A stretch of DNA of 60,651 bases, the filler included, from Jimgerdemannia flammicorona (lineage: Eukaryota), in the NCBI GenBank assembly GCA_003990765.1. It is 3 parts of 3 records of this genome, joined end to end, with 100 filler letters (N's around TTAATTAATTAA, not from the genome) between each part and the next. Parts side by side here need not be neighbours in the genome. Positions count along the whole stretch, not along the records: positions 20,254 to 40,404 come from RBNJ01001748.1; 2 more parts are not named here. One strand, 5' to 3'. Position 1 is the stretch's first letter. Each line of letters begins with the position of its first letter. A program made the translations under genes and the position numbers. The notes beneath the pieces are model-generated. The model saw only the letters and a list, made by a program, of their open reading frames with translations, ran no database searches and was not told where the DNA came from. Shown here one piece after another: positions 10,118 to 54,892 of this stretch.

Positions 10118-10150
10118 AGGAAGATTGATGACATCACATATATCATTAAT

Positions 10151-13100
10151 ATGAACAGTACAACCAACATTTTTTCTTTGAACGTGAATGGGTTACGGGG
10201 CGCTTCTCGAGTAGGAACATTTTTACTTGGATGAAGGGATTAGAGGCCGATCTCTTCCTCTTGCAGGATGTCCAGTGTGAAGATGACTCTGATAGGTTCG
10301 AATGGACGAAGGAATTGGGAGGTGCGGCAATTTGGAAGGGCAAGGTTGGGATTTTGGTTAGGAAAGGCAGAGGGGAGATACAGAATGTGCAGTGCTGGGG
10401 GGAGAGACTGGTCTGGGGAGAGTGGATTCGGGCAGGCTGGGAGCCAGTTATGGTTGGTTCCTGCTACTGCCCTGCAGTACGGGGTGAGAGGGTCGATTGG
10501 ATGAAAGGCTTACAGGAGAGTGGATTACTTGCGGAGGCCGGGGTGGATGTGCTAGGGGGAGATTTCAATATGGTTAGGGATATACTGTTGGATAGATCAG
10601 ATGGAGGACGAGGTGCTGAGAGCAGGAGTGGAGGGCTGGTGGCATGGGAGGATGTAGAGAGGCTGAGTGCGCTATTGGATGCTAGAAGGGAGTGCTGGGG
10701 GAGTAGGAGGGTCTATACACATTGGGCGGGGGGTCTGGGGACTAGAATCGATTGGATTTTGACAGCCTGCTGCTGGGGACTAGATGTTTGGAAATCATTG
10801 GAGGTGGAATGGTGTCCATGGTCGGATCACTGGGGGCTTTTGGGACAGGGGTGCTTTGGGGGAAGTGGGGATGGGCCTGGACATTGGTGCCTCAATTCCT
10901 CCTTGTTAGATGACAAGACCCGGTGGGATGAGTGGGCTAAAGACATTCAGCTGAGGGTGGAGAACTGGAGGCAGGAAGGGGCCACAGTTGGGACTCGGTA
11001 GATGAGGATGAAGGAAATGGCCAGGATTTACTGGAAGGAGGCTGGCAAGGAGGCAGGGAAGCAGCGAAAACAAAGAGTATGCTGGGCCTCTGCTAGATTG
11101 ACGAGGCTCCTGGAGGAGTGGGCAAGGCTGACGATGTTGGAGGGAGAAGAAGATTGGCGATTAATGAGGGTGAAAATGGAAGTTGGGGAACTTCAACAGG
11201 TGCTGCGGGAGGAGGAAGAGGCGAGAGTACAGAGCTTGGCAGCATGGCTTTGATGGCAGGATCTGGAGGAAGGAGAGAGGCCTTCCAAGCTTCTTACAAG
11301 GGCTCTTAGGGCAAGGTGGGTCCAGCAATAGTGGGAAGGGGTATTGGACTCTGATGGTGTACTGGTGCATGGTGTATAGGACATTCTTGGATCACTGAAG
11401 GAGCGATGGAGTGGATTGTGGAGTGAGGAGGAAGGTGGGGCAGATGCCGCTACAATTGAATGAACATTGGAGGATTGGTACCCACCACAAGTCGAAGGGC
11501 TAGGGGACCTGGTGATGCCTGTACAGGAGGAGGAGATCTACCAGGTTCTTGTCGCGACAATGTCTGGTATGGTACCTGGGGAGGATGGGCTGCCCTGGGA
11601 CTTTTGGAAGTGAATGGTTGAGGTCTCAGGGGTGATGGGAGAGATGACAGTATTGTGTGACCTTATTCTACAGACAGGTAGATGGGTGGGGGAGCAGGAC
11701 CTTGGGCTGGTGACGCTGCTCTACAAAAATAAAGGAAGGTGGGAGGATTGGAAGAACTGGCAGCCGATAATGCTACTAGATATGGACAGAAAGTTGGTAA
11801 CTAAGGTGGTGGTGGCGAGACTATAGAAGGTGGCCCAGCAAGTTGTGGGTGTTGAGCAGAGGGGATTTGTGGGTGGTCGGCTCATCAGGGATGGCACTGC
11901 CTGGGTGTATGGCATCATCAAAGGGGTGAGGGCATGTGGACTGGATGGGCGTCTAGTTTTCTTGGACCAGGAGAAGGCTTACGACTGGGTGCAGAGAGTC
12001 TGGCTGGAGAAAGTTTTGGATAGAATGGGGGTACCGCATCAATTCCGGTCAACAATGGTCAGCCTACTGGAAGGGAGTAGGGCTGCACTCATGTATAATG
12101 GACATAGAGGGGTAGCATTCCCCTTGGGAAGGGGAGTGCCCCAGGGGGACCTGTTGTCCCCCATTTTGTATGCTCTTTCTCTGGAACCACTTATGGACCG
12201 GATTAGGCAGAGGATAGTGGGGCTCTCTGTCTTTGGCATAGGATGGAAGGTTGGGGCCTTTGCTGATGACATGGTGGTGGGCTTGGGTTCAATTGCTGAT
12301 GTTGAGGAGCTCAAGAGGACTGTGGAGTGGTATGAGGAGCATTCTGGAGCTAAGCTGAATTGGTATAAGTGTGAGACGATGGTGCTTGGTAATGGTCTGG
12401 TGGAAGGGGAGGTTATAGGAACAATTGTCCCCACCGGTGAAGCAGTGCGGTACTTAGGTATCTACTTGTCAGTCTATGGGTCAGTTCTGCCCAAGCTTTG
12501 GTGGGAACAGAGGATTGGAATCTGGGAGGAGGCTCTGCAGAGTTGGGGGGGAAGATATTTCTCTCTGGCAGGGTGGGTCTCAATTTTGAATGTCTACTGG
12601 CTGCCAAAGTTGTGGTACCTGGCGTATCATCTGGACTTCCCAGCCTGGGTAGTGAAGAGATTGATGAAGTCGGCGAAGGGATGGATTTGGGCTGGCAGGC
12701 GGAGTCAGATTAGTTGGGAGACCTTGTCCCTACCAGTGGCAAGAGACAGCCTTGGGTTGGTTGACTTCCCAAAACGGTTACACTGCTTGAGAGCATGGTG
12801 GCTGAAGAGAGCAGTAGAGTTGAGAGGAGGTGGATGGGTTCCTCTGTTACAGAAGATATGGGAGAGGCAGGCATCACCAAGGGGCTCAACTGGTGATCTC
12901 CTCTCCTTGATTGGGCTTCAGAACACTGCCCAACTACGATATAAAGGTTTTTGGTGGGGAATTGCTGAAGGAGTGCACCGCATTGGCATTTGTTGGCAGG
13001 GGAATGAAGGTGAGGAGGATTGGGACCCGCCGATGTGGAGATGGGACCATATACTGCTGGGTAGTGCTTCTTTAGTTGAGTTCGACATTGGTGATGGTAT

Positions 13101-13806
13101 GGAATGCCAAAGGGGACCAGGCCAGGATCTGTGGCCTAGCAGTTGGCAAGGAGTTGGAATTGGCGAAGAGTGGAACTGACATAGTGTTTGGACCTAGAGC
13201 GCTGCAGTGAGAGCATGGCTGCCACCAAAGTACTGGGTGGTCTGGTGGCGCATGCTGCAGAGGAACATTATGCTCAATTTTCACTCAGGGCACCTGGTTG
13301 TAGGGGGTTGCCTCGACTGTGAGGAGTGCCATAATGTTGAGCAGGAGGGGGGTTATATATAGATGCCGGAACATTGGCTAGGAGAGTGTGAGGTGTTGGG
13401 GGATTTTTGGCAGACAATTGGGGATCACTTAGGGGTACAGAGTAGGAGTGATGAAGTGCAGGGGCGATAGGAGGACTTGAGGGTTAGATTGGTAGGGGGG
13501 ATAGGGAAGGAGTGGCTTACTTTAGGTTGGACTTTGGCAATTTGGGTGGGGTTGGCCAGTCATTGGCTATTTGTTTTTGAAGATGGGAGGAGGCAGAGCT
13601 TGGGGGACCGGCTGCTGTGATGGCATAGGCTTATGGAAGATACCTTGACAGGCTGGTGGCTAGGTTGGGGGATGCGAGGTGGTCGGAGGCATCGCTTGGT
13701 AGAGAAAATCTGTGGGCAAAGTGGGGGGAGAGTGGGGGTAGTTGGTGAAAGGGTGATTTTCATTCGTGAGGAAGTAGGGAGGGGCCCCCCGGTGGGGATT
13801 GGATAG
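10151..13806 (+). pseudogene. LINE ORF2 (APE endonuclease, reverse transcriptase, C-terminal Cys/His finger); frameshift near 10210 and several stops
   Basis: MNSTTNIFSLNVNGL, GDFN, RIDWIL, SDH, DQEKAYD, QGD, FADD, CLDCEEC...EHWLGEC. Ends PPVGIG*. Confidence 0.92.
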
Positions 13807-20153: not shown

Positions 20154-20253
20154 NNNNNNNNNNNNNNNNNNNNNNNNNNNNNNNNNNNNNNNNNNNNTTA
20201 ATTAATTAANNNNNNNNNNNNNNNNNNNNNNNNNNNNNNNNNNNNNNNNNNNN
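20154..20253. other. Artificial contig linker N44-TTAATTAATTAA-N44
   Basis: Exactly 100 nt with stops in all six frames. Identical to the second linker. Confidence 0.98.
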
Positions 20254-20344: not shown

Positions 20345-20399
20345 ACGATGGCTGGAAAAAAAAAGGGGGAAAAAAGAGCGCGTTCTGTTAGAAGCAATC

Positions 20400-21922
20400 A
20401 TGGCAACAGAAGAGCGCGTGGCGAAAAAGCTGAGAATGGAAAAGACCGAGATTCCCTCACTAATACAACAAGACCCTTTGGTTGCTGAAGGGGCTGAGGT
20501 GTTGGTGGAAATGGTGAAGGAGGAGGACAAAGAAGAGGAGGAAGAGGAGGAAAGGTACACGGAAGAAGAGAAGGCTGCAGGCGAACAGTTGCTGAAAGCT
20601 GTCGCCGACGGCAACCTGGTATGTTCACTTACAAAAGCTCTTCATCGTGCCCAAAACTTCACGAGTAGTTACTGGAACATTTGACCAAAATTCCCACAGG
20701 ACCAAGCCAAAGCGGCCGTCGCCGCCTCCGCCGACATCATGTACCGCGACGAGCTCGGCCGCACACCCCTGCACATCGCTGCGGAGCACGGCCACCTCGA
20801 AATTATTACCTGGCTCTTCTCTGAGCGGCACCCATGGAACGTGATCGATTACAGTGACATCACCGCAGGCGAGCTGGCGCTGCAGAACAAGCACGATGCC
20901 GTGTATGAGGCGCTATTGAACGAAGGGTGCCGCGCCGAGTTAATCTTGCGCGCGATATCGGCGGTACTCGGCGATGATGATGAGCCGAGCACGGATTACT
21001 TGCAGCAGAAACTCCATTACGATGATGACAGGCTCATGGACGCTAATAACGACGCAGTGATGATGGGATGGGAGGGTACATTGCTCATATTGGCATACCA
21101 GCATTAATTGTGAATGACGCCGTCATTTACCCTGATCCTATCCGCTATCTTTGTCAATCTCAGGCCCTCTCATGGCGGAACACGCGAAAATGATGTGCCC
21201 ACAATCCAGCCTCTCCGTCCTCAACGTCGGTTTCGGTCTCGGCCTGATCGACACAGAGTTGCAAAAACTCAAGCCGCAGGCCCATGTCATTATCGAGGCC
21301 CATCCGGACGTATACGCACACATGCTCAAGCTTGGATGGGACAAGAAGGAAGGCGTGTCGATCTTATTTGGGAAGTGGCAGGAAACAGTGCCGTGGATTG
21401 AGCACAAGTTCGATGCGATATTCTTTGATACGTATGGTGGTAAGCGATGCTTGTCGCCTACGTTTCATCTTTGTTTTTGGAAGTGATGCCAAACGATAGG
21501 ACCTATATCTCACAATCCATTTGATACTATCAACTATTCTCTCAGAATTTTATGACGACCTTCGAAAATTCCACAGTACCATTCCCAATATGTTGAGCCC
21601 CAATGGCATCTATTCTTGGTTCAATGGTCTTGGAGCCACCAATCAGTTCTTCCACGACGTCTACTGCCGAATATCCGAGCTGGACCTTCGTGAATTGGGG
21701 CTATCGACTGAGTATGTTGAGATGGCGACGCCGACGGCAGACGAAAGGGGAGTGTGGGATGGTGTTCGACAAAGGCATGTGCCTTTTCTCTTTGTGTCTC
21801 GCTCCTTTATATTGTTTATATTGAATCGCATATCATCGTATTTATATGCATACACTCTTGTCTATAGATATTGGGTACTGGATACCTACCGATTGCCCAT
21901 ATGTCGTTTCTTGACTGAGTGA
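20400..21922 (+). CDS. RMT2: Protein arginine N-methyltransferase 2 (ankyrin repeat plus RMT2/GAMT-type MTase); exons 20400-20618, 20700-21075, 21164-21439, 21546-21774, 21868-21922
   Basis: Ankyrin GRTPLHIAA. RMT2 motifs VMMGWE, VLNVGFGLGLID, IIEAHPDV, FDAIFFDTY, SWFNGLG, RYWVLDTYRLP. Splice phases are consistent. Confidence 0.93.
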
Positions 21923-22265: not shown

Positions 22266-25200
22266 TTAATGACCCGACGACGACGGCGGCCATGCCGGCT
22301 TGAGCGACTTATCAAATTCGCCATAAAACCGATTCGAATCAAGGACACGGTGATCAGATCCACCAATTTGTGCGTGACAGTGTGGACAAGTGGTGACCTC
22401 AGTAGCACCGCCGCATTCGCCTATAATGGTAGCCGACCGATAATGTGTTATTTTGATTGGGTTTCACATTGCTGAAGCACTGTTTACATGAAACCACGAT
22501 AAGGTGTATGAAAGGAAACATACCGATATAGTACGGGTGATTGTTCGGACACACAAACCATCTTCCGCCCACAATATTAAACACGCCATGTTTTGTCTCC
22601 TCATTCATTGCTGATATAATTTCACTTTTTTCTTGCTCTGTTAACCGTTGTCTACTTTCCTCTTGGCGCGCTTTGATCTCGTTGACAAGGGCAACCTCGG
22701 TTTTGATGTATCCGTTGTAACGAAGAGCAGTATAGATAGGCTTCTCGCATGTAGGACATTGCCAGAGTTTGATTGCAGTATGTTCCTCTGCGTTGAAGAG
22801 AATGACGTATACAGAGGTCAGATATAACAGCATGCAAATGTGGAACCGGTTAAAAGAATAAATTATTGAACTCGTACCAGTTTTGACTTGGTTCGCGAAA
22901 TACATGTCTAGATATTCGACCGAGAATACTGCAAAAACATTGCATGTGTACATCACTAACGACATTTTAGCCCAATAGATTTTGCTGGATGTTCCTACGT
23001 ACCACAGCCACACTCTGGCAGCTTGTACATCCGTTCGACTTCATCGAATTCTCCCAGCGTTCTTAACGAGATGCTGCATTGTATTTCGGGACAGCAAGAT
23101 TTGCAAGGCGGACACGGTTCTCCGCAAAGTCCGAAACAAGTGTGACTATACAACGATTTGTGGTTAGCTGTTAATGAATCGGATGTTATCGGTTTGCGCG
23201 CATTCCCCTCTTCCTTCCATGATGTCCAACTTACCCGCAATCAAATCTCTTTTTACACCGTCTATTGCACGGAGGTCGATCGCATTTCTGTTATTGATAC
23301 AATATTAGTGGTAGAAGCCAGAGAAAAGGAAGAGCATGATTGAGGTATATGGGATTGAAAATACTACCTCATAACAGTACCTATTGCACTTATAATGCGG
23401 GCACTGACGGAAGCAATGGCGATGGCAATGAAATCGTGAGTGTACGTATCCGAACATTCATATGTTTACGGCAAAATGAGCATATGCTTACTTCGTAAGG
23501 GCAATCCTGCACACATCGAGTGCAAAATTTCCAGCATTCACGTCCACATTTGTTGCCATGCGAGCACACGTACGCGCATTTTTCCAAGCACCGATCCGTA
23601 TGGTTGTCAGGATTTCCGCACCCTGTCGAGACAAGTGAAATATTGAAGTCAACGTATATTTCAAACAAGAACATTTGATTATGCTCCATCAAAATTGGTT
23701 CTTACCTCTCGAGCACATGTGCCCGCATATCAACCGTTTTGTGCATGGTTGAGTACAATCACTTCGTTTGTGTGTATGTTCTTTCCCACACTATTATTGA
23801 TCCAGAATAAAGCGCGAAAGATAACGGCTGAGAAAATTCCTAAGAACGATAAATCTGCGAATTTGACGACTGTCAGGTCGAGATTACATACCTGATTCAT
23901 GCAAGGATGGCCACAGGGCAACTTCTGCTCGCACTTCTCCGGACAGACAACTAACCTCCCGCATATAGTAAGCACCTCATGCCCACAAGCCAGACTTCTT
24001 GTCTCTTGCGCGGTACATACAAGCCTCGATGTATAGTCTCGATTCTGCTTCTTGAAGCATTCGATATTTTTGACATGTCCACACGGAAGGCGATATTCCA
24101 CGAAATTATGACATTTGGGGCTCTCCAAATTGGACGGCAAAGCATTGCAGCGGCACTTGAATTGATGTTGACAAGGCAATGTCATGGTCACCTCTTCCTC
24201 GCACGGCGGGCATTCATCTCGTTGCTCGCATTCATGGCATTTTTTTGGACATTTATGTGTGCATCTATCGAGACGTGGACGCAGACAATCTCGCTCGCAT
24301 TTGATGAGCGAGTGGTCTTGTTGGTGGCATAACTGTACCGCCAAAAACAATAGAGGGATAAGAGAGAGCGAGCAAATAGAAAATAAATGGGCATACGAAT
24401 ATATTCTCAAAGTCCTATTCAACATGGAAGGGTGGCTTACACATAAACTAGATTCGTACCTTGGGACACACATGGCCGCAGTCCAACAAAGTTTTGCAAG
24501 GTTCCTAATGTATCGATGGAGTTGCCAATTATTGTTCAAGTATTATATGAAATAAAACCGGCTTTCAAGTCATCGTGAATTACCGTGCAACCGCCATCTG
24601 GAATCTCATCAAAATCCTTCGCTGATGTAATCACTCGTCGACGTTCAGGGTGGTTCTGGCAATGCACCTTGATCCGTTCGCTAATCAATTCTGTAAAGGG
24701 AGAATACGTCAACATCAGGCTATTCCTCGCATATCAGAAGCTAACGCGTAGAGAAGTATAAGCACCGAACCTTGTGCAGTAAATGTCTCGATGATTTGAT
24801 CCCATCCTGGCATTCTCTTTAAATTCTGCCCATCCCCGAAGATATACAGTCCATGCTGAGCCCTAGACAAGGGCAAGACGACACGTTGATCTCCTAGTAG
24901 CATGCCATGTTCCTCTGAACAGTTTCCGCTTGCCATCGACACGATCACAATGATGTTCTCTCGACCGCGGTATGCCGATGCAGTTTCAACGACAATAGTA
25001 CCTTTGCCGCCGGCTGAGGGGCTGGAGATCAGCCGAGGATGGAGTGCGTCCACGATGACTTTTTTTTGGCCAATGCATTGTGTGAGAATGGTGATTTCGG
25101 ATGGATCATATCCCTGTTGCCAAAGATAAAACGCGAATCGAGCAACAAGCTGTCCCTCCCAATCACTGATACCGTGAATCCCGTAGGAACCGTCTTTCGT

Positions 25201-28200
25201 TCCCCGTTTGTGCGAGAAGAAGAATGTGTTGGAATCAACGCCAAGAACATTGGGAAACTTGGATGGCGATAGATGTTGCTCAAGCAGCCTATCATAAAAG
25301 GGTGCGACGAGAGAACTGATTGGCAAGCTCATGCGATATTGTTGTTTCAGTTCAACATACTTTCCACCAGACTGAATCCAACGTTTGAGAAGCGACACAT
25401 CGAGCTTGAAGTCGGTGGCGAGAACGCGGTTGTATACTTGAGGGGTATCAGAACAAGTATCGCCAATAAGCACAACGTGTTCTGTCTTCGGTGAGATTAA
25501 GCATGACATGAGCTGCGCTTCCATCATTCTGGCCGAGTCGACAACGCATACACGAGGATCGAGCGTCTGGATTAGTTCTCGATACGTCGTAGCGAACGTC
25601 GCGGTCATTCCAATCACTCTCGCGAACCGGCATCTGGCAATCCAACGATTCTTACGCAGGTCATCCAATTGACTGTAGAGTCGGTAGAGATCATTCAGGG
25701 AGCGACCGATCTGTTCGTCAATGGAATGCAAAGCCTTGTTGGTGAAATCTTGCCGGATCTGTTTACGTCGTGGAAGGGAGAGGGACCACAGATTTGGTGG
25801 CACATTCTTCCATACTATTTCGACCAACTCTTTAGGGATTTTTGGATTCTTTACTCGATCATCGTCCGGATTGCCGGTGAGTCTGATGATCCGCTTACGT
25901 CGCCGTTCATAGTTACTGGGATCGTCACAAAGAATCAGATGTTCGTCCACATAATTCATTGCCGTATCTTGGTTTAATAGACGTAATGTCGCGACATCGG
26001 AGACGGCACATCCGTGGCTCCGCCGTTCATTATCACTATCACCCGACGAATCTATCTGCTCAGACACCGACCTTGCCTTTCGTCTCGCACCAACTCGTCC
26101 AGAAGTGTTACGCGATCTCTTCGGGGGGTAGTCCAGCCACTCCGAGAGACAGCTCTTCAGTAACTCCGCCCTTCCGCGATGACGAGTTGCATCGCCAGTA
26201 TTCAAAAAGGTCCCAAGGTATTGGTGGGGAATCGAGTTGATAAAATATTCGTCCGATTGAGCTTGGATCCTCACCTGCCAGAGGTAGGCGAGCTTCGTCT
26301 GCGCTGCTAACATTTCGGTGATCAGCTGTTGGTGATGCCGTTTTCCGTTATCCTCACGCGATTCGGCAACGGCATGTATCTGACGGTCCCAGAGCAGCAC
26401 GTTGTCGGTGAAGGGTCCGAAACGCACGAAATCAGGAATCGTTGGCAACAACGTGCTCAAAATATCATCCAAACCAGCTGCCGTATCCGCGATGACCAAG
26501 ATGGGCTGATAGAATTGGCCATCCTTCAGAGCTTGGTGAAGCAACTGCACAATCTTCGCCGCCAGGAATGTCTTACCAGTACCCGGCGCGCCAGCCACAA
26601 CCGCCACCCGATTCGCCAAAACATGCCGCACCGCTTCCATCTGAGAAAAAGAAATGTTATAGATTTGTTGGCGATTGTCGCCCAGATACTCCGGCCAAAT
26701 CTCCCCAGGTTCGACCCGAGTACCCTTAAAAGCCGACTTCATGATGCATGAAATGTCTAATTTCCGCTGGAACAGATATTCTGGGACGAGCTTGTCATTT
26801 TGTGGCAATTGTCCCGAGAAATCACGCACAGTCAACAGCGAGGTAAGCAGGGACGGAACGGCAGCCGTGGAATTCTGGAAGTTATTTGCGGCGGATTTCA
26901 ACCATTGCAAAACAGGTTCGAGAGCCACAAAGTTCGGTAGCGATTCGAAGCACTCGTATGAGGCGTTCAGCTCCAGCTGAGTGAATTGTTCTTGTGAAAA
27001 ATGTAGTCCAACTACGCCTTGCTTCTCGTCGCTCGTCTCGTCGTTGTTGTCGATCAGAAGCTCGCGCACAACGGCGAACGTGACACTGTCCCGCTCGTTC
27101 TCCATAAACAAGGCAACCAGAGATCCGTGCTGGAAGTAGGTCTCAAAGTCATCCAACAACCGCGAGACGCGGAACCGAAACCTCACGACCGGTTCAAACC
27201 CGTACCCCAAAGTACTCGAGATCGCGCGAAGCTTCACGAACCACAGCGCGTTTGGACGCGACAAGGTTCTGGCGACTCCTACTCGTGGACGTATTGGCTC
27301 AATGCTGGCAGCGTTGGATTGTCGCAGTGGATCGACGATTTCGGCACGGAGCAGCGAGAAATGGGTGTCTAGGTATACATCAATCCGATCGGCGGGCCAC
27401 GGTACAGTGGCGAGATTGGCGTGCATCTTTTCGTGGGTCGGAGGGTCATTCTGCGAGATTTCATCGAGACTGGGCAGAATCGGCGTGGTATAGATCATGG
27501 ATTGATGCTCCCGGATCCATGTGACATCGCCCCCCCCCCCGTCTACCGGCTTCTTTGTTAGCGGGCGTGCGGTTGGGAGAGACTTCGTGGACTGGCTGAT
27601 GACCGCTGACCTATCTTTAGCCATTTGTACCGTCCTCATCTCCCTAAGTAGCCCCTTTGCTGCCTTTGTTTCTCGAGCATCGAATTTATCCTGAATCTCT
27701 TCCAACTTGTCGTTCAGAACGTCAGTGGGTATCACCTGCGCGCGATCCGGTATCTTCGTGACGAAAAGCCAAAATAGTTTGAGTAGCGGCATGTATTCTT
27801 CGGAACTATTTATACTCGTTTTGAGGTGACGCACCGCGGTTTCCAAAAATTCTGTAAGGTGAGTGGAAAGGGCGTCGAGAACATCGAGCATGGTGGAGTC
27901 TCGGCCTTTCATCATTTGATGCGAGGAGAGAACACTGACAAGCAGAGCGAAGTTTCGATAGCTGACTCGAGAGATTTTTCTGATAAGCTCCCCGGCTGCG
28001 TGCAGTTCCTGCACTTGAGCATTTGGCGACAATCCCTGGAACTTGATAAGGAATCGGGACACCTCGTTGTCGTCTCCAGAATTGATCAGATACGATCCGC
28101 TATCGAGTGCATCGACGGAAGGGTTTGGCGTTGGATACCTTGACAACGGATCGGCAGCACCTCTCTGTGACTGCGACATCGACGTCTCCCTTGACGTGTC

Positions 28201-29358
28201 CGGCGTTCTGGCGTTTAAAGTGGCGGCGAGCGATTCCACATGCTTCGCGTGATATTCCGGCCCTTCTTGATCAATAGGAGGTGCAGATTGTGGCGAAATA
28301 GATGTCTTCGCGCTGCTGATATGCAGGAAGTCGAACGAACGCCGCTCTTCCTTCACCGATCCGTTTTCAGCCTTATCGCAATCGTAGTCTTCTCCCAAGT
28401 CCCATTTAACCATAGCTATTGCTTTCACCTCCTCAAAATCCACCTTCACCCGATCACCTCCTTTTCGTTTGCCCTGCGAGTTGTGGGGTAAGGATTCGTT
28501 CAGTTCAAAGGAGCGTGATGGTGACTCCATGGAACTGGTTCCTATTCTGATGTTTCGGACGTGTGATGTATTGGTTTGGGGGGAAGATTGAGATGCGGTA
28601 ATATCTGCCTTGATCATATGTAAAGGGATTTCATGTTGTGCAAGTTCGGTTCCGTTAATTCGACTGGTTGAATATGGCGACGAAGAGTGCACTCGACCAC
28701 GAGCATGCAATGGTGAATGCTCTTCTACATCATTGTGTTGCGGTAGTGCTTGTAGCTGATTCGATGAAGCTGTTTCTGGCCGTCGTCGATAATCACTTTG
28801 ATCGTGAGCGTTTGGGAGCGCGACAGTCGGCGGGGTGATCCGCGCGGGAGCCTGCATGATAGGCTGAGGGGGAGCCTGCGCGGGAGCCTGCGCGGAAGCC
28901 TGCACGATAGGCTGCGCGAACCATCTCCGCGATTCGTGCGAACTTCGTACTGGGAACTGACCGGTGGAAGAGGGCTCTTCAATTAACTCTGCCTGCTTGC
29001 CAGTACGTGAGGGTAGCGACTGTAATGGTTCCCGGCCCGCGGGCCATTTCGAGTTTTCCCTCGGAACGTCGTTTCCGGTGATAGAGACTCTACCTCGAAT
29101 CGCCTCTTCATTCTCGCCAGTTCTGTTTGAGGATGTCTGTGGCGGCTCCGAACGTTGCACTCTGCCAACTGAATTTCGCTGGGCATCGTTAACGGCACGA
29201 AATACTATGCGGAGTCCGTCTGCATTTGCCGGAACCCCGCTGTTTCGCCGAAACTTTTGTGGAGGGGAGTAAGAGTCAAAAGAGGCCCTCTCTGGAAGGT
29301 TTCGCAACAAGTGGACAATCTCTCGGTGGATATCTCGTTCCTGTGTTTGGGAAGACAT
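22266..29358 (-). CDS. ZNFX1/Hrr1-family SF1 helicase-like protein with NF-X1 zinc fingers, RING-like domain and C-terminal RZ finger (multi-exon; 4.6-kb exon 29358-24771; true start uncertain)
   Basis: GAPGTGKT, VIGMTAT, LIGD, QYRM, LSRA. Then CQNHP...DGGC, LPCGH repeats, CPTC..I..ALRY, and WFVCPNNHPYYIGECGG...CPHCHAQIGG. Stop TAA at 22266-22268. Confidence 0.88.
28842..28917. repeat. Imperfect 12-bp coding tandem repeat (QAPA/QASA units) in the disordered N-terminus of the ZNFX1-like protein
   Basis: Repeated agcctgcgcggg-like units. Confidence 0.7.
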
Positions 29359-29681: not shown

Positions 29682-30122
29682 TCAAATCACAAACACCGAC
29701 GGCCCATCTATAACCTGATGCCCTGCCTGCTCAACAATAACCCTCCTCGCCTCTTCCACGTGCGCCTCCTTGATTAGTACATAATCGGTGTCGTAGGTGC
29801 TGACGACGAAGATGGGCACGCCCGCATCGCGCAGTGGATCGGCGACGGTGGTCAGAATCCCCACCAGGGACAGGTCGAGGACGGCTTCAATCTTGAGACA
29901 ACGCCAGCCCGGTTCGACTTTAGTGGCGTCGGTGAGTGGGGGGCCGTGTGTGTAGGCAGCGGGGAGGATGACGGAGAGCTCGTCGGTCGTTTTTGAGATA
30001 GTGTACCAAGGAGATTGGAGAACATCCGCTGGGACGACGGTTGAGCGGGGGAGGCGATGAACGGTGAAAAGGTCGGGATAAAGAACGAGGGTTAGCTTTG
30101 ATTGCTCTTGATGGGATGACAT
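29682..30122 (-). CDS. Small intronless ACT-domain protein (ACT_7/CASTOR-like, 146 aa)
   Basis: TISKTTDELSVI and GWRCLKIEAVLDLSLVGIL...GVPIFVVSTYDTDYVLIK are signature motifs of the family. Confidence 0.88.
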   Translation of the reverse strand: MSSHQEQSKLTLVLYPDLFTVHRLPRSTVVPADVLQSPWYTISKTTDELSVILPAAYTHGPPLTDATKVEPGWRCLKIEAVLDLSLVGILTTVADPLRDAGVPIFVVSTYDTDYVLIKEAHVEEARRVIVEQAGHQVIDGPSVFVI

Positions 30123-30184
30123 GGTCAGAGAAAGTAAGCTAATAGCTTTGAAAACCAATGTACATGTGATCATGGGCATGTGAC

Positions 30185-30665
30185 TATTCTATATTTTATA
30201 TGCTAACTTGAACTTTAAAAAAAAATAATATAATAAGAAAAATACTATTTAAAAATATTTTATTACTTAAATACTGAATTTATATTAAAAGTATATATTA
30301 TTTATAAAATTTAATTTTAAATTTTTTATAAATATATATTTAACTTTATATTTTATTTAAAATAAATGAATAATTAGTTGTTCTAATCTTATTTTATATT
30401 AAAAAAAAAAAAAAAACAACTTTCAAATTAATATTATTAAATAATAAATATAGAGTTTTAATTATAATATTTTATAAAAAATATAGCAGTTTAATAAATT
30501 ATTTAAAAATACTAAATCAATTAAAATTATTGATATACTTTTTACAAATAAATACTTTCTGTAAGTAATATAAATATATTACTCGCTAACCAATATTAGC
30601 AAAAGTATTTACCAGAAATCTTATAAACTATATCTTAAAAATATTAAATATTTAAACCAAATAAC
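30185..30665. repeat. Extremely AT-rich island, probably a hypermutated transposon relic
   Basis: Abrupt switch to almost pure A/T inside a ~50% GC gene region. Internal A-run at 30401-30416. Confidence 0.5.
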
Positions 30666-32269: not shown

Positions 32270-32630
32270 TGGCGTGCGCATAAGAACACGTAGAATGGAC
32301 AGACCTATCATTGGCGGTGGTGGTGGAATATGTGCTTTGTGATAATGCGACAAATAATCGGGTCGTGCAACAGGGCTGTTTGCTCCGTTACGTGTTCTGT
32401 TTTCCATGAGTTGGCTGGCACTAATACTTCTGTGCTATGAGAAGTTGGAAAGTATTTTCTTTCACGATTACATATTTGTTGGTCAAGTACCAACGAGAGG
32501 AATATATTTTGTCTTAATCTTTCTTCATTATAATATTTTGCGTATTCCAATACGTTACTTACTATGCAAGAGTGGTGTGTGCTGAAAGTAAGACAGTCCC
32601 ATCGTTGCCCCTGTCATTCTTGGCTGCACC

Positions 32631-35505
32631 ATGGTCGCTCCAAAGCTGTCGCAGAGACTAGATCCCTTTCACCTTTTCCTTGCTGCCACCGTCTTTGTCA
32701 TATTTCTCGCTGCCTCCTTGCGCTACTTCACCGGTATGCCACGTCAGAAACCTAGGACACTGACAAACACGAATCTCCGCCTGACACATCATTTACACCT
32801 TTGCACAGATGCCCCAGACCGCAACCGTTGCCGGTCTCTCCTAAATGATGGCTGGTGGATCGACTCCAAGTTCAAAAACTGGCAGCCTACAGGCTGCACG
32901 ATGCAGACTTACAATTCTGATGCCGTCGTTAAGTGCCTTGGCAACACTCATGTCCTCTACATCGGCGACTCCGTCATCCGCCAGCAGTTATTCGGCATGG
33001 CCGAGAAGGTCGACGCAAATATCGTCACTAAGGGCGAGAAACATTCAGACCGTGTCTTCACTTCCTCCAGCATTACCTTTGAGTTCTGGTGGGACCCTTT
33101 CCTCAACGCTTCCCATACCATCGACATCCTCAATGGCGTTGCCAAGTTTCGCCCTTCCCTTCTTGTCCTAGGTACGGGATTATGGTACCTGAATTACCTC
33201 GAGGGCTCTGACGGCCTCGCCGCTTGGAAATCGATTATCGATCGTACAGTCCACCAAATCTCCAATCCTACCATTGCCGCCGACATAGCTGCCACCATTG
33301 TCCTTGCACCCGTCGAAACGCCCAAGTACACCCTCCTGAACTCCACCCGACGTTCCCGTCTATCTCCCTCCAACATAGAGGCCATGAACGACTACCTGTT
33401 CCGCTATAAGGACGAGGTGTTCATCCCTTTCGCGTGGAACCGCATGGTCGAACAATCACCCTCGCTCACCGATGACGGATTGCATTTTGCTGATATAATT
33501 GCGACGAAGCAGGCCGATATCTTGCTCAATTTCAAGTGCAACGATCAGTTGCCCAAGCAAGCGCCCATGGGAACAACATGTTGTTACACGTACCCGCAGA
33601 CTAGGTGGTATCAGAACGCAGTTTTCTTGTTCTTTTTGGCGTGGGTACCCTTGGGGATGTATTTTCGATCGACCGGTAGACAATTTTTTTTTTGTTTGTT
33701 TGTTTGTTCGTTTATTTATTTCGCCATCGTAATCTGCAGTATCCGTTGGATATCCACACATGATTGTAATGATATTATCAGACTCTTGTACCCGTCTCCT
33801 TACGCTCTCCACTCCTTTATTCTTTACCCGTCTCATGTCGGAATTACCATACTCGCGTTGCAATTTAGATGACAACCTCTCTGTGTCTGCCAAGCGCTTC
33901 GTCAACCGTATATTCCCCTCTGAACCGGTTCTCGTCGCCCTCTTTACCTTTGGCTTGGGCATCCTGTACATGTTTTACAGCGACCGTACACAAATATTCG
34001 CCAAGGCGCAGAAGCAGTTCAATCCTTGGGAATTCGGACCCATGATGCTGCTGGCCCTTATCATCGGTCTTGCCACACTCAAGCATCCCAAAAAGGACCC
34101 TATCACGAGCGACGGCGGGTTCCTGAACCGCGAGCAGACGGACGAGTGGAAGGGATGGATGCAGCTCGTGATCCTCATCTACCATTACTGGGGCGCGTCT
34201 TCGATCTCAGGGATCTATAACCCGGTCCGCATCCTCGTGGCGGCCTATCTCTTCCAGTCGGGCTACGGTCACTTCTTCTTCTTCTATAAGAAAGGCGATT
34301 TTGGCGTCGCTCGTATTGTGTCGGTCCTCGTTCGCCTCAATTTACTTACCGTCGCTCTCGAGTACGCCACGGGCAACGACTATCTGAGTTACTACTTCAC
34401 CCCCTTGGTCTCCTTCTGGTTCCTCGTCATTTGGGTGACCATGTACGTGGCGAACAAATATAACAAAACGAAGTGGGTTCTTTGCCTCAAGCTTGTCGTG
34501 GCATGCGCTATCACTACCTGGCTGATCCACTACCCTGGCGTTCTGGAGCGTGTCTTTTCAACGCTAGAAATCGTGGCCAACGTGCACTGGAACGCCAAGG
34601 AATGGCGCTTTCGTCTCGCCCTTGACGCCTACATTGTCTACGTCGGCATGATCGTTGCCTACATTTACATCCGTCTCCAGGACCTCAAGATTGGCGACCG
34701 CACCAATTGGCCTTCGATAAAGCGTTATTCGATCTTGGGCGCTATCGTTGTTATGGTTTGGTACTTCTGGTTCGAGCTCACCCGTCAAGACAAATTTGTC
34801 TACAATGCCTACCACCCCTTCATTTCCTGGCTCCCCATTGTGGCGTTCACGTTTCTTCGCAACGCGACTCCAAACATCCGCAACACCACCTCCCGTTTCT
34901 TTGTCTTCTTCGGCGGCTGCTCACTGGAGACTTTTATCGGCCAGTTCCACATGTGGCTTGCCGGCGACACCAAGGACCTGCTCGTGCTCGTCACGCCTGC
35001 GGGCTGGGCGACAGGCCTGGGGTGGTGGGCCAACTTCGTCGTCAGCTCGGCCGTTTTCGTATGGGTGTGTTGGGGCCTCGCGTGGTCGACGGCCGTGATC
35101 TGCGACTGGATCTGCGGGACCGGCGGAAAAAAGAGGGGCGCCGTCGCTCCGGCGCCGTCGGCTCTGACCAATGGCATGACGCATCCACATAGTAACAAGC
35201 ATGCGCCTGGCAATAGCGAGCAAATGATCCCGTTGGTGTCCGGTGCGGAGTTTTCGGCCGCGGTGCCACATCTTCATCATCCTCACGAGATCGTCAGCGA
35301 TGCAGGGGGGAATGGGGCGGCGACGGCGGTGGAAATCGTATCACCGAGGTCGGGGAAGGGTGAGGTCGGAGGAGACGGTGAGGGTGAAGGGGGTGAGGAG
35401 GTACCGAAGGAGGCGGGTTCGTTTGTTGAGCGGGCGTGGGCGGATCAACGGGTTAAGGCGGTAGTTTCGGTGGTGGGGCTAGTAATTTTGAATCGGTTGT
35501 GTTAG
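32631..35505 (+). CDS. CAS1: Cas1p/CASD1-family O-acetyltransferase (SGNH-like luminal domain plus 10-TM acyltransferase); exons 32631-32733, 32809-33675, 33869-35505
   Basis: IGDS, FWWDP, DGLH motifs, then FLNREQTDEWKGWMQ, YLFQSGYGH, EWRFR, SLETFIGQFHMWL. Confidence 0.92.
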
Positions 35506-35874: not shown

Positions 35875-36286
35875 CTACTTTTCCTGTTCCAAAACCCTCC
35901 TCCTCTCCGCCATCTTCTGGTCGTGCTTCCGCGAGTAATAGAACGATCCGGAGACAGCCGCCAGGAGGGTGAAGCCCTGCGCCGCGACGCGCAAGCGCAG
36001 CATCTTATTTGCGTAGACGCGGTCCCCCGTACGGAATCCGATAGTGGCGGCAGCGAGGGCAAAGCACGTGAGCCCGATGCCTGCGCAGAACGATGAAGAA
36101 GGAGGAGGGTGAGTGTGCGAACGAGGAAGGAGCCCGTCGAAGAGGGACGGCTGGCTCACCGGCAGACACGAACGGTTCCTCCTTTGCCTTGCGCATGAGT
36201 CGATTCCATCCGCTCTCGTATTCTATCAGCTTGTAACGCTCGTACTCCTCGTCCATGGATAGTTCTTTGGGCTTCTCGGACGACAT
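35875..36286 (-). CDS. RCF1: HIG1-domain mitochondrial respiratory supercomplex factor (Rcf1/HIGD2-like); exons 36286-36160, 36080-35875
   Basis: RKAKEEPFVSAG...ANKMLRLRVAAQGFT is the HIG1 signature, with two TM helices. Confidence 0.85.
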
Positions 36287-36426
36287 GGTTGTGGTGATCG
36301 AGCGATTGTTGGAATTGGAAACATTGGCCGAATTTGTCGCACGTGACGTCTTACTCGGTTTTGGGTTTTTTTCATTTTCAGCGCGTTCAATAAGTATAGC
36401 ACTAAAGGAGTATATAATGCGAAAAA

Positions 36427-36457
<31 letters not shown>

Positions 36458-37447
36458 GGAAATACCAAGCAATATATTTAGATAGACTCAAACCTGCTCG
36501 CCAGCCTTCACCGTACCAGTTCATCGGGCTCAAGGCTTACGCCTGTCGCCAATGTTGCTCGCGTTTAGGAAACGAAGGTCGCTGATTACGGATACGACGA
36601 CGTGTCGCATCCGCAAAGATGTCGTCAGCCGCATACGCAACCAGAATCATGCAACAAGTCCTCGTCGCAGCAAATGTGCATCTTGTCGGCGACGCGTCCT
36701 GTGCCGTTCTCACTGTAGTGAAAGATAAGCGGGTTCTTGGTCGGTAGAGCTCCCGCTAGTGAATGGACGGAGACGAAGGGATCGTGCGGCCTCCCTCAAA
36801 CATAGTAAATGCTATGCCCGGTTTCGCGCAGAAGGATGTGTGTAATTGGCGGTGGCAATCTTGATGTATCTCAGGGCTCTTGAAGATTCGAAAGCTGGTC
36901 CCGTTACTTTTAGTATATCAGCTGGAAAAAATAGAGTGATTCTCAAAGAAATGTGATGGCGTTTGAAGGGTCAATGTATGCGTCCAACTCATCGTGACGC
37001 AAGCCTCCGCTTGAGTGGTGTCATCAACCGAAGTATTTATCGAGCCAGCATTTTGTCGATATTGGATGATCGGCGCATTCGGCAATTGCTTCCAGTAATG
37101 ACAGACAAACAATGTAATGATGGCTTCAACCAATGATCACGACCGATCTAGTTCCATTTTTAATGGCGTGACCCATTTGGACACGTGAAAAATGGATCCC
37201 GTTGTCAACTACATGTTTTTCTTATCGCAAAACACAACTGAAAAAAACCCCTAATGGCATCAACCCGTATAAACGTAAAAAGGGAACCAACGACATCAGA
37301 CGCGATCTAGACACAAAACATCACTCTGATTCCCCGACATATTGTTTGTGGTGCAAAACTATACTGAGTTACAGCACGGTATCGAGAAGGTTCAGTAGTG
37401 AGTTTCATGGTGATGAGGATGGATACTGCGCCAAGCAATTGCGCGAT

Positions 37448-37988: not shown

Positions 37989-38173
37989 GTTGGAGCGGAC
38001 AGAGGGGGAAGAAGAAAAAAAAAAAGAAGGAAGTGGGGAAAGCGGCGTCAGGAGTGATTTGTTGATGGACAAAGCACAGATCACGTGGTTAGGATGCGCA
38101 GTCGGCGCTGATGTCATCGGCTTGACGTCCCGTTTTTTGGCCCTCTGCTCTTGAGCCCTCGAGCCCTCGTGCC
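37989..38173. promoter_or_regulatory. 185-bp divergent promoter between TMA7 and the DUF1992 gene, with central CACGTG (38082-38087)
   Basis: Head-to-head ATGs. The E-box is nearly equidistant from both. Confidence 0.6.
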
Positions 38174-39250
38174 ATGAGCAACTTGCTCACCAATATATCC
38201 ATCCCCACAAGGAGAATAGCCCTGCCATCACGCGGGCTTTCCTTCTCATCCATGCTCCGCACCTCCAATCAGGACTCTCCCCCCCCCTCGCGCACCCGCC
38301 TTGTCTTCCCAACCGATACCCCCGAGGAAACCCAACGCTCCCGAGCAACCCCCACCGCGAATGACCCACCCTGGACGGGCGAAGAACGCGTGCAAGATAC
38401 CATCCTCCGTATGCTTGTCGACAAGTACAACAAGCCCCTTCGCGTTGAGGGCGCCGCTCGTCAAGCGATCCCCAGACCGACCCCGCTCCACCCCGTCGAC
38501 TTAAATTTTCATGCTAACACAACACCCGACGATTCCGCTGAAATCAGCAGCGCCAAAAAGGCCCGCGAGCGCGAGGCCCGCGTCCGCAGTCGTTTACAGA
38601 ACCGCCTCTCGAGCGCGCGGGACAGGGCGTTCGATTATCGCTCAGGTGTGGTCGCGGGTGGCGATAGTGGGCGTGACGTGGCGGGGGTAGAGGTTGCGGA
38701 ATTGGAGGTGGAGAACGACTCGACGCGGCCGACGATGACGAAGGACACACTCCCGAATTTTACGCCGATGGATTTGCGTCGACCAGTGGATATACAGATT
38801 GAGGCTGCTCGTGCGCGGGGGGACTTTGACAACTTGCCCGGGCGCGGCAAGCCGTTGCCTGTGGACGCACAAATAAATAACCCATTTATAGACACGACTG
38901 AGTACCTAATGAATCGGCTCGTGCAGCGGCAGGGTGCCGCGCCGGCGTGGGTCGAAATGCAAAACGAGGTCGATCGGGAAGTTAACGCGTTCCGGAAGGA
39001 GCTGAGCACTGGGTGGCGGAAGCTGGTTAATGGGGAGGGGGAGGGAGATGGAAAGGTGGGGAGGAGGGCGAGAGAGGACTGGAAAGAGGGACAGAAGGCG
39101 TATGTGAATGCGGCGGTGAGGATGCTGAATGGCAAGATTAGGAGTTATAATGTCTTTTGTCCATCTGTGGTTCAGAAGCCGTATTTGTCGGTGGAGGAGG
39201 AGTTGAGTAGGGTTTGCGAGGTGCGCGAGAAGGACAAACATGCACTCTAG
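38174..39250 (+). CDS. DUF1992 (DNAJC28 conserved domain) protein, probably mitochondrial, single exon
   Basis: IEAARARGDFDNLPGRGKPL, EYLMNRLVQRQGAAPAWVE and GEERVQDTILRMLVDKY motifs. Arg/Ser-rich presequence-like N-terminus. Confidence 0.88.
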   Translation: MSNLLTNISIPTRRIALPSRGLSFSSMLRTSNQDSPPPSRTRLVFPTDTPEETQRSRATPTANDPPWTGEERVQDTILRMLVDKYNKPLRVEGAARQAIPRPTPLHPVDLNFHANTTPDDSAEISSAKKAREREARVRSRLQNRLSSARDRAFDYRSGVVAGGDSGRDVAGVEVAELEVENDSTRPTMTKDTLPNFTPMDLRRPVDIQIEAARARGDFDNLPGRGKPLPVDAQINNPFIDTTEYLMNRLVQRQGAAPAWVEMQNEVDREVNAFRKELSTGWRKLVNGEGEGDGKVGRRAREDWKEGQKAYVNAAVRMLNGKIRSYNVFCPSVVQKPYLSVEEELSRVCEVREKDKHAL

Positions 39251-40404: not shown

Positions 40405-40504
40405 NNNNNNNNNNNNNNNNNNNNNNNNNNNNNNNNNNNNNNNNNNNNTTAATTAATTAANNNNNNNNNNNNNNNNNNNNNNNNNNNNNNNNNNNNNNNN
40501 NNNN
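40405..40504. other. Artificial contig linker N44-TTAATTAATTAA-N44
   Basis: Identical to 20154-20253. Confidence 0.98.
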
Positions 40505-44630: not shown

Positions 44631-45161
44631 TTAGTTCAGAAATATGTCTTGAACTTTCTGGGGTAATGATCTGACATAGTTGTCAACTTTGGAAAAATCT
44701 TCTTTGAGATTTTCATATTCTCCTTTAGATAAGTAGATAGAGATAGCAAAGAGAGAACATTTTTTGACCAATTTCTTAAGTTGTAATTTGTTGATGTGAG
44801 TGATCTTTGATTCAGAGTTACTAAAGCTGAGTGAATCTTTTTTGCCTTGTAGTTTGAAATTGTAGTATTCCTTCTTGATAGTTAAAGAATAGTTTACCCA
44901 ATTGATTATAAGGTTCTCTTGTTTTAACCATGAGGTTCCAAGGATGATTTCATTATCAGGAAGTAATATAATCTGGAGTATAACATATACTTGGTAGTCA
45001 CTAATTTGGAAGTGTAGATTGTAGACTTCCTTGCTAATGATATGTGAGGTTCTATCAGCTATAACAACTGCTTGAGTCTGTTGTACTGGATAGGTCAGGA
45101 CCTTGAGTCTGTTGGCTGTTTCTTTATTGATAAAGTTGTCTGAGGCACCACTGTCTATCAT
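44631..45161 (-). pseudogene. Retropepsin-type aspartic protease of the LTR element
   Basis: IDSGASDNFI and IILGTSWLKQENLIINW motifs. Confidence 0.88.
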
Positions 45162-45899
45162 AATCTTAACAAGTGCTCAGTTGACAAAAGCTTGAAATAT
45201 AAGCAGTTTGTCTGATCCAATGCTAGTGATTTTGGTTGTAGGAGTTTTCCTTCTGTTAGTTCTCCTCTAAGCTAGTTCATTGACACAAGAGAAGCAATTG
45301 TTAATCATTCAGAAAGAGTACATTCTAACACCATAGGGGTATTGGCCACTTGGTACAAATCTATCTTCAATTTTCTTATAGAATTATTCTTCTTTGTTTA
45401 TAGTAGATTGAGCTGAGGTCTTGTTTGATGAACCAAATTCTTTGGATCCTTGGATGGTGGGCAGTAGTTCAGAGACTTCTTTGACTATCAGGATTGATTC
45501 AATTTTCTTGAATAGGATCTGGATAATACAGAAACCAATGGAGATCTTGAAGGATATCCAACTATGGTTTCAGATGAGGACAATGATTTCATCTGTAGTC
45601 TTCATCAATAACTCCTCCTTCTACTGAAAGTCCTTTCAATACTAGGCTGCTGTGATAGTATATTCTTCCAATATATCCTTTAGAAATTTGAATACTGATT
45701 CCTATATAGACTTACTTGACTTCTCAGTTGGAAACTATAGCTTCTTCAGCTACATACAGATCATATCCAGCTGCTTTTTGACTTTCTTTAGTTGGGGCCT
45801 TGGCAGTTGGTCTTAACTTGACAAAGTCCAATATCTTGGTGGTCAGATTGTTGAGGTGATACAGAGTAGTAACAGTTGCTCATATTGCTGTTCAGGTTT

Positions 45900-53696: not shown

Positions 53697-54877
53697 GCAG
53701 CTCCTTTCTCTGCTATCTTACTGGTCACAAGGTTTGGTAGACAACCTTCTGAGTCCCCTTTCCCCTAATATTACCACCTCTACCTTGGATTGGTTTGCTG
53801 TGCCTGTAGAGGCATGGTGGGAGGAGGGCAATGGTGATGAGTTGTCTCTTTATTGGTGTCAGATCGGTGCTTCCTCCACTTTTTTGCAGTTTCTGGTACC
53901 TTCGGCTACATCTGGGGTGTGCCTGTTTTGGTGCAGCATCTTCTTCCTTTTGCCATCGCCAACAAGGTGTTGTCTCGATGTGTCTCAGGCTATATAGGGA
54001 GTCGGCCGACCTTGGGCATCAAGTGCTCAGTATAGGTTACCTGCAGGTCTTCGGTGCCTATGGTGGGGCCCTCTGGCTTTGGCGAGCTTCTGGTGAGTAT
54101 GGTTCTGGCATAGGTGACTGTTTTTTGGGTGTTGTCGGGATGGGAGGGGAGATGGCCATTACAGATAGGAGGAAGGATGATAACAGTGAACCAGTAGGGT
54201 GCCAGGCTGGGGGTGGTCATCGGAGCTGGGGCAGGTGCTGCTTTGGTGGGGCCTTTTGATTGGTGCGACGTGATTAGGTGGTAGGTGTCACTATCAGCTT
54301 CTTTTGGTGGTCAGCGGGGTTGGGCCCCAGTCGTCAGGGGGGGTCAGGAGGCCTGAGGCTACCCATTTCAGGCATCTTGGCTGCACTCAACTGGAACTGG
54401 GAGCTGACATGGTAACGTGATCGAGGCCCGCAGGCTTGAGTAGTGGGGTATTGGGGGTTTCCTCCCACCTCACATGTAAGTCCTTTACTCATCTCAACTG
54501 GGAGAACCAGGTCCTACCCACCATGTTGTGCTTTGATGAGGGTTTTTCCTTTGCCTGTCATTCTCTTTGGGGTAGCAGGGGCTATTCTATTTGGCTCGAG
54601 CATGGTCTTGTACATATGTTGGGTTCTCAGGTGTGCGCTTTCAGTCATTGGCATATGGTTGGGTTTCCCCTGGTGGTAGGGAGAGCATGGTGCACAGAAT
54701 GAGGTGCAGGCTTTTTTTAGCCCTGCTGCGCCTGGCATAGTCAAGCTGCTGGACAATAGCTAGCCTAGGTTAATGGGGGGGCAGTGCTTGGTGGGTGGTG
54801 GGGGAGAGTTTTGGCCTATATAGTCTAGGTTCCCTTCCAATAAAAATCCATGGGACATGAGTCCGTAAAATAAAAAA
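53697..54877 (+). mobile_element. Non-autonomous ~1.18-kb poly(A) retroposon (element X), copy 2
   Basis: TSD AGGCACCTTTCT(T/C)CT at 53682-53696 and 54878-54892, short A-tail, and the same 5' start as copy 1. Confidence 0.9.
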
Positions 54878-54892
54878 AGGCACCTTTCTCCT

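Follow-up and report, generated by a model that had tools for sequence, protein, structure and literature searches.

A ZNFX1-like protein of Jimgerdemannia flammicorona with an eroded helicase motor and retained Miz and RZ modules

Human ZNFX1 (PDB 9q9z) is described as an ordered array of an ARM-like domain, a helicase core with 1B and 1C, a zinc-finger stalk, a Miz domain, and an RZ finger, which unwinds RNA and needs both ATP and RNA for its E3 ubiquitin ligase activity (PMC13710534; 10.1101/2025.09.05.674436; 10.1101/2025.10.14.682297). The two inputs are reported to form an AND gate, from which an RNA-binding mutant escapes, being deregulated and active without RNA (10.1101/2025.09.05.674436). 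This coupling of RNA sensing to an unusual two-site E3 was recognized only recently. Here, we describe a ZNFX1-like gene of Jimgerdemannia flammicorona (GCA_003990765.1) whose helicase core has lost residues for hydrolysis and RNA contact while the Miz and RZ modules are kept. It lies in a stretch of 60,651 nucleotides (hereafter the window) made of three contigs, with N runs at 20154-20253 and 40405-40504 marking the joins; the host contig of the gene (C1748, RBNJ01001748.1) occupies approximately 20254-40404.

Several other systems bear on its interpretation. RNF213 is reported as an RZ ligase activated by ATP binding and not by hydrolysis (PMC12075652). It also joins an RZ transthiolating E3 to a P-loop module and is our working analogy for gating, but its core is AAA+ and not a superfamily 1 (SF1) helicase, and homology is limited to the RZ finger. 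Mucor RnhA (MUCCIDRAFT_143979, P0356), Hrr1, and SAD-3 belong to the ZNFX1 family, RnhA being described as required for epimutation (PMC5384783). RnhA-type proteins are found in the same species as the proteins studied here, but differ by their canonical motifs (33-34 of 33-34), their size (1100-1380 aa), and the lack of ARM, Miz, and RZ domains; RnhA itself flanks the sex locus. For UPF1, the N524A/K547A/R843A (NKR) mutant is reported to be unable to bind RNA (10.1101/2025.03.24.645002), and the Q665A and DE636AA mutants to stop hydrolysis while keeping nucleotide binding (PMC3575847). The Jimgerdemannia protein naturally combines the equivalents of these hydrolysis-dead and RNA-blind changes; the UPF1 mutants are engineered loss-of-function alleles, whereas the present gene is conserved and also encodes an E3. 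The helicase fold has also been kept after loss of the catalytic motifs in RecC, AddB, and the C-terminal cassette of Brr2, and we know of no E3 ligase on these pseudohelicases or on Utp25. All four belong to other helicase families. Utp25 is likewise described as a pseudohelicase that kept its fold after losing its catalytic motifs (PMC9539457). We found no description of a ZNFX1 pseudo-helicase clade in Mucoromycota; as subscription journals were mostly outside the search, it may have been noticed before.

Gene structure and protein architecture

The gene (29358-22266, minus strand) comprises 12 exons and encodes 2032 aa. All the motifs quoted in a first-pass annotation of the window are contained in a minus-strand open reading frame of 1569 codons (29424-24715), at the places where they had been reported (table 1). 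Exon 1, read there as a 4.6-kb open exon, is open over 4588 nt from the ATG at 29358, a start taken from database models P0002 and P0179. The gene is expressed: its 11 GT-AG introns are skipped in contigs of the two public runs X1 and X2, and since the records class neither of them as RNA, transcription is deduced from these joints. Splicing the window accordingly leaves the frame open over 2032 aa, down to a stop codon at 22268-22266. Residues 640-1550 of the minus-strand frame are 100% identical to P0002, labelled Jimgerdemannia flammicorona at NCBI. Towards the 3' end both database models contain errors, P0002 lacking Miz and RZ and P0179 retaining 12 intron-coded residues within RZ.

X1 shows no difference from the window over 24771-28159. 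For X2, 19 single-base differences were listed, none at a motif residue, together with an insertion of 3 nt that keeps the frame and a gap of 165 nt in the region encoding the N-terminus. As X1 matches the window, the X2 differences miss the motif residues, and orthologs share the losses, the motif substitutions are not sequencing errors. The coding differences of X2, ten nonsynonymous and eight synonymous, give a ratio of nonsynonymous to synonymous polymorphism (pN/pS) of 0.37 (one-sided p 0.035), which argues weakly, in the expected direction, against decay of the gene. For a comparison between species, Mucorales synteny and DNA were sought in metagenomes; none of the 48 pattern matches was confirmed.

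With a UPF1-like core that has 1B and a large 1C and is closest to ZNFX1, followed C-terminally by the stalk, Miz, and RZ, the protein belongs to the ZNFX1 family. The best solved sequence match of the core is human ZNFX1 (9q9z, phmmer, E 8e-53). Structure modelling, which had been proposed as a check, shows that the core fold is intact: the AlphaFold2 model of the 912-aa core has a predicted local distance difference test score (pLDDT) of 82 and a predicted template modelling score (pTM) of 0.85, and its top Foldseek match is again 9q9z (E 6.5e-34, TMq 0.54). Upstream of the core, a domain of about 150 aa is probably a homolog of the ZNFX1 ARM domain, on the basis of its position and of a weak match to the N-domains of canonical ZNFX1 proteins (hhalign probability 42%, E 2.7e-4); BLAST gave no match between it and P0387.

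Within this fold, the ATP-binding set is retained: the Walker A Lys and Thr, the Q-motif, and the two arginines. In human ZNFX1, the reported ATP contacts are K625, T626, R1074, and R1223 (PMC13710534), and E1007 is given as the catalytic Glu (10.1101/2025.10.14.682297). By contrast, the motif II catalytic Glu is replaced by Ser1275 and the motif III Gln by Ser1303, so that two hydrolysis residues are absent. We take this motif III Gln to be the one mutated in UPF1 Q665A. Motif V has also lost its Gln. The losses extend to the single-stranded RNA (ssRNA) groove, where the counterparts of UPF1 N524, K547, and R843 are Ala960, Phe983, and Ser1477.

Downstream of the core, 48 Cys are found in residues 1536-1830 of the spliced model. 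A Pfam scan called no NF-X1 finger family in the protein, so that the NF-X1 label is based on homology and on the pattern of Cys and His residues. The RZ finger is recognized by Pfam (PF20173, E 5.7e-11 on P0179) and retains the four zinc ligands, the catalytic Cys and His dyad, and the Ile of the ubiquitin-binding helix described for ZNFX1. In the Miz domain, Leu occupies the position of human F1575 and Glu that of the linchpin Q1623.

Residue losses and retentions across an old clade

Orthologs are found in Endogone (52% identity), in Mucorales (27-32%), and in Glomeromycotina. In a FastTree phylogeny of 266 cores, the members from Mucorales, Endogonales, and Glomeromycotina are united with a support of 1.0. 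An IQ-TREE mixture-model analysis, run on 48 selected rows after removal of the motif columns, recovers both this clade (100/98) and the grouping of Endogonales with Mucorales (100/99). The gene thus belongs to an old ZNFX1 paralog clade, whose age is set relative to these three fungal lineages; no Umbelopsis or Mortierella member occurs among the matches listed. Among canonical proteins, the closest to the clade are those of protists, with Perkinsus and Rigifila as the named sources, on long branches. A tree forcing the clade with RnhA/Hrr1 was rejected by the approximately unbiased (AU) test (p 4e-5), with long branches and a grouping defined after inspection of the tree. Outside the clade, the ZNFX1-like proteins P0058, P0063, and P0093, from Sodiomyces, Colletotrichum, and Cutaneotrichosporon, also have partly odd helicase motifs, which may be separate losses or model errors.

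We scored 268 other family members, 34 RnhA-type proteins, and 47 Mucorales-group, 3 Endogonales-group, and 7 Glomeromycotina members of the clade. Human numbering was mapped through bat ZNFX1 (P0423) and the 9q9z alignment, gaps were dropped from each n, and proteins without a name were assigned to groups from their place in the tree. Sequences of up to 550 aa, the redundant P0130-P0178, most of P0314-P0333, the duplicate P0002, Aquarius, and Dna2 were omitted. The motif Ia Asn is present in 261/261 canonical relatives and 34/34 RnhA-type proteins, and in none of the clade members (0/46 Mucorales, 0/3 Endogonales, and 0/7 Glomeromycotina). The same holds for the Gln of motif III (267/267 and 33/33, versus 0/46, 0/3, and 0/7), the Gln of motif V (264/264 and 33/33, versus 0/47, 0/3, and 0/7), and R1201, the RecA2 RNA Arg (263/263 and 33/33, versus 0/47, 0/3, and 0/7). 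As these residues are present in all of the 261 to 267 canonical relatives scored, the substitutions exceed chance. They are common to the orthologs and not a peculiarity of one genome, as a check proposed at the outset had asked. All three UPF1-NKR positions, whose spacing was checked against the UPF1 of this genome, are lost in 45/45 Mucorales, 3/3 Endogonales, and 6/7 Glomeromycotina (54/55), but in 0/250 canonical and 0/33 RnhA-type proteins. The equivalents of K446, K990, Y1043, and K1186 are also gone in the three Endogonales, which retain R967. In 23/47 Mucorales the K547 position is acidic, and the acidic blocking helix is unrecognizable in the Mucorales rows, where the alignment is uncertain.

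Of the three groups, Endogonales alone have lost the catalytic Glu (3/3). Retained in both Mucorales and Endogonales are the Walker A Lys (46/46 and 3/3), R1074 (47/47 and 3/3), R1223 (46/47 and 3/3), and the Q-motif (46/46 and 3/3). Overall, ATP-contact residues are conserved at 96-100% in these two groups, while 55/89 other canonical columns fall below 90%. Clade-specific conserved changes also occur, such as a Trp at two positions.

The Miz and RZ are the best-conserved parts of the clade proteins. Over 55 pairs of 11 Mucorales species, the RZ finger has a mean identity of 0.82, the Miz domain of 0.67, and the core of 0.46-0.50, against 0.74-0.78 in the core of RnhA. An RZ finger was recognized in 24/47 Mucorales, 2/3 Endogonales, and 3/7 Glomeromycotina, and Miz in 25/47, 2/3, and 3/7, respectively; neither was found in the 34 RnhA-type proteins. 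Where RZ was detected, its catalytic Cys is present in 29/29 and its His in 28/28. Seven Glomeromycotina proteins (P0180, P0181, P0182, P0191, P0192, P0222, and P0269) have a broken Walker A, with a near-identical Miz-RZ tail where the model is complete. Two broken-Walker-A proteins of the clade come from Dentiscutata erythropus.

A proposed ligase with a helicase-derived module

We give slightly better than even chances to a functional, RNA-blind E3 ubiquitin ligase built on a ZNFX1-family pseudo-helicase and vertically inherited in Mucoromycota, with the motor serving as a nucleotide-binding switch or scaffold. With a folded RecA core and an ATP pocket held in Mucorales and Endogonales, but hydrolysis-coupling and ssRNA-groove residues gone, the protein would neither unwind RNA nor grip ssRNA in the usual groove. 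Judging from these residues, helicase activity is very likely absent, canonical ssRNA binding is likely absent too, and what the protein senses is probably something other than RNA. It is predicted, with good though lesser confidence, to be an active E3, in which the E2 would dock on Miz and ubiquitin would be passed through the RZ cysteine. By binding nucleotide or a partner, the dead motor could change conformation and so control the ligase, in the manner of RNF213. Gating by nucleotide itself, proposed from this analogy, we rate at a little under even. A nucleotide-holding switch is favored in Mucorales and Endogonales because the ATP pocket has been kept while most other canonical columns eroded. 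As for the role, cell-autonomous defense or RNA-granule quality control alongside the active helicase RnhA would be a guess.

The first-pass annotation had itself proposed a paralog that is a pseudo-helicase yet retains its ATP pocket and E3 modules, and this part is borne out. Its emphasis on the loss of the Walker B Glu fits this protein and Endogonales only, and the ATP-binding ability that it proposed applies, as far as pocket residues tell, to Mucorales and Endogonales.

Several observations weigh against the gated-ligase reading. Mucorales keep the catalytic Glu in 47/47 proteins, and a slow ATPase could remain there. Glomeromycotina mostly lack the ATP pocket (Walker A Lys in 2/7, Q-motif in 0/7); nucleotide gating therefore cannot be what the clade as a whole does. 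Part of the 1C basic patch remains (mean K+R of 5.0 in Endogonales, 3.2 in Mucorales, and 5.5 in canonical proteins), leaving room for RNA binding outside the groove. The Glu linchpin of the Miz domain, which is Gln in 20/24 Mucorales and Arg in Endogone, may weaken a RING-like route. RZ was detected in only 29/57 clade members; the remainder resemble first-exon or partial gene models. Finally, the polymorphism test comprises 18 sites.

The Glomeromycotina losses indicate that the ligase can persist without an ATP pocket, and so keep alive the strongest alternative, an adaptor E3 for which nucleotide would be irrelevant, the dead core and ARM-like domain forming a scaffold that brings the ligase in trans to an active helicase, RnhA or another ZNFX1. 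RnhA-type proteins carry no Miz, RZ, or ARM domain of their own, at least 11 Mucorales species have proteins of both kinds under their name, and human ZNFX1 is reported to ubiquitinate in trans (10.1101/2025.10.14.682297). We nevertheless regard this alternative as unlikely, given the conservation of the ATP contacts in Mucorales and Endogonales, the AU rejection of a sister relationship with RnhA/Hrr1, and the presence in the same genome of canonical helicases with an RZ match on their contig.

Less probable still is the RNA clamp or RNA-sensing ligase that the first-pass annotation had put forward, a protein locked on RNA in an ATP-bound, non-hydrolysing state like UPF1 DE636AA. An intact Walker A beside a broken Walker B, the remaining 1C basic residues, the R967 retained in Endogonales, and the reported RNA binding of the human ARM domain (PMC13710534) are in line with it. 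Speaking against it, as far as the canonical groove is concerned, are the loss of all three NKR equivalents and of the four further equivalents named above in Endogonales, and, in Mucorales, the often acidic K547 position and the blocking helix that is unrecognizable in an uncertain part of the alignment. A divergent yet active ATPase or translocase with another substrate seems to us quite improbable: although Mucorales keep the Lys, Thr, DE, and both arginines and show clade-specific conserved changes, the protein described here lacks the catalytic Glu and motif III Gln, and the core evolves much faster than that of RnhA from the same species. A decaying duplicate or annotation artefact, suggested by the fast-evolving core and by mobile-element frames on neighboring contigs, is hardly credible in view of the open 2032-aa spliced transcript, the pN/pS value, the near-invariant E3, and orthologs in three fungal lineages whose tree follows the lineages.

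More broadly, an ancient Mucoromycota branch of ZNFX1 may have turned an SF1 helicase into an RNA-blind sensor of nucleotide or partner that switches a Miz-RZ ligase. It would have arrived independently at a logic like that of RNF213, and would complement RnhA, the RNA interference helicase without an E3, in the control of viruses, transposons, or endosymbionts; this wider scenario is tentative, and we hold it rather unlikely in full. The clade forms a natural separation-of-function series, Mucorales lacking the groove and coupling residues, Endogonales the Glu as well, and Glomeromycotina mostly Walker A, with the ligase intact throughout, so that the input needed by an RZ ligase becomes directly testable. 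Pin moulds and mycorrhizal fungi would, moreover, share a conserved and unstudied E3, which annotation pipelines label as helicase or hypothetical protein.

Paralogs and genomic context

Five ZNFX1-like loci of the genome (L002-L005, L007) show canonical motifs over the portions read, which answers the proposal to look for a canonical paralog. The genome further has UPF1 (L006) and an RnhA-like gene that is spread over two short contigs and truncated at motif III (L040, L038). At two of the five loci, an RZ match lies on the contig of the canonical helicase (C1800, C6387); the pseudo-helicase is therefore not the sole likely helicase-E3 of this genome. Three more RZ-finger matches, on contigs without a ZNFX1 helicase match (C331, C1409, and C1856; L045, L046, and L050), possibly belong to RNF213-like proteins.

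Identity of the gene with the sex-locus helicase RnhA was rejected, as the latter corresponds to P0356, which is canonical and distinct. No HMG-box frame was noticed next to the gene, where Pfam, run on five of the frames, identified four neighboring genes (table 1). The rnhA primers matched none of the proteins with which they were compared, a result of no weight here. The tree and AU test also rejected the pseudo-helicase and RnhA as the two halves of one Mucoromycota duplication. For rnhA, a sex-locus position is given in PMC9963178, PMC7928374, and PMC5982828. PMC5384783 mentions, without study, another and distant helicase, e.gw1.14.1.1, which may plausibly be a member of the present clade. 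Znf3, which the first-pass annotation had listed as a fungal relative, is presented in PMC4778953, as far as consulted, as carrying zinc fingers and a putative ribonuclease domain, and not as a ZNFX1-family helicase. P0369, an RnhA-type model from Funneliformis, carries Argonaute/Piwi Pfam domains, through either fused neighbor models or a real fusion.

Table 1. Coordinates of the ZNFX1-like gene, its domains and motifs, and other features of the window
Feature	Position	Strand	Basis or remark
Exons 1-6	29358-24771, 24690-24584, 24504-24460, 24332-23892, 23790-23706, 23622-23492	minus	transcript joints, X1 and X2
Exons 7-12	23403-23368, 23287-23235, 23145-23003, 22928-22878, 22787-22524, 22420-22266	minus	transcript joints, X1 and X2
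N-terminal low-complexity region, ~430 aa	28066-29358	minus	translation; Ser/Pro/Gln-rich, poorly conserved by inspection
~150-aa domain where ZNFX1 has its ARM domain	27622-28065	minus	position and weak profile match
UPF1-like helicase core (stalk, 1B barrel ~27243-26938, RecA1, 1C, RecA2), fold intact	24771-27507	minus	phmmer, AlphaFold2, Foldseek
Q-motif Gln906 and Walker A GAPGTGKT (26592-26569; Lys929)	26569-26643	minus	retained
Motif Ia IADTAAGLD (26493-26467)	26410-26493	minus	Asn to Ala960 (UPF1 N524, ZNFX1 N659)
RNA-contact Lys/Arg	within 26410-26493	minus	lost, Phe983 (UPF1 K547)
Walker B VVDSAR	25528-25545	minus	Asp1274 retained; catalytic Glu to Ser1275 (ZNFX1 E1007)
Motif III LIGDTCSD	25447-25470	minus	gamma-phosphate Gln to Ser1303 (UPF1 Q665)
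Motif IIIa/IV Tyr1341-Arg1342	25333-25338	minus	retained (ZNFX1 H1073/R1074, ATP contacts)
Motif V TASAYRGRE (24984-24958)	24928-24984	minus	Asp and Gln lost, Gly and Glu retained
RecA2 RNA Arg	within 24928-24984	minus	Ser1477 (UPF1 R843, ZNFX1 R1201)
Motif VI LSRAQ, arginine finger Arg1499	24856-24870	minus	retained (ZNFX1 R1223)
Cys/His-rich NF-X1-type zinc-finger stalk, exons 2-9	23079-24661	minus	Cys count; alignment with ZNFX1
Miz/U-box-like E2-binding domain	22744-23078	minus	CSISL ... CGC ... CPTC
RZ finger	22350-22625	minus	catalytic Cys ECGG 22418-22407, His IGGSDH 22367-22350
ACT_7 protein	29682-30188	minus	Pfam
Cas1-type acyltransferase	32592-35505		Pfam
HIG1 protein	35875-36487	minus	Pfam
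DJC28 domain protein	38126-39250		Pfam
LINE-like endonuclease frame	10150-11001		
Reverse-transcriptase frame	954-2468	minus	
Reverse-transcriptase frames	11827-13179, 58553-59113		
Retroelement-type aspartyl protease frame	44631-45176	minus	AT-rich stretch

On the host contig, a convergent gene lies at approximately 20350-21900 on the plus strand, and transcript contigs of the helicase gene extend into it. It presumably encodes a relative of the ankyrin-containing arginine methyltransferase Rmt2. Elsewhere in the window, 1-20153 and 54000-60651 contain blocks of very strong GC skew (~0.3-0.55), in either direction.

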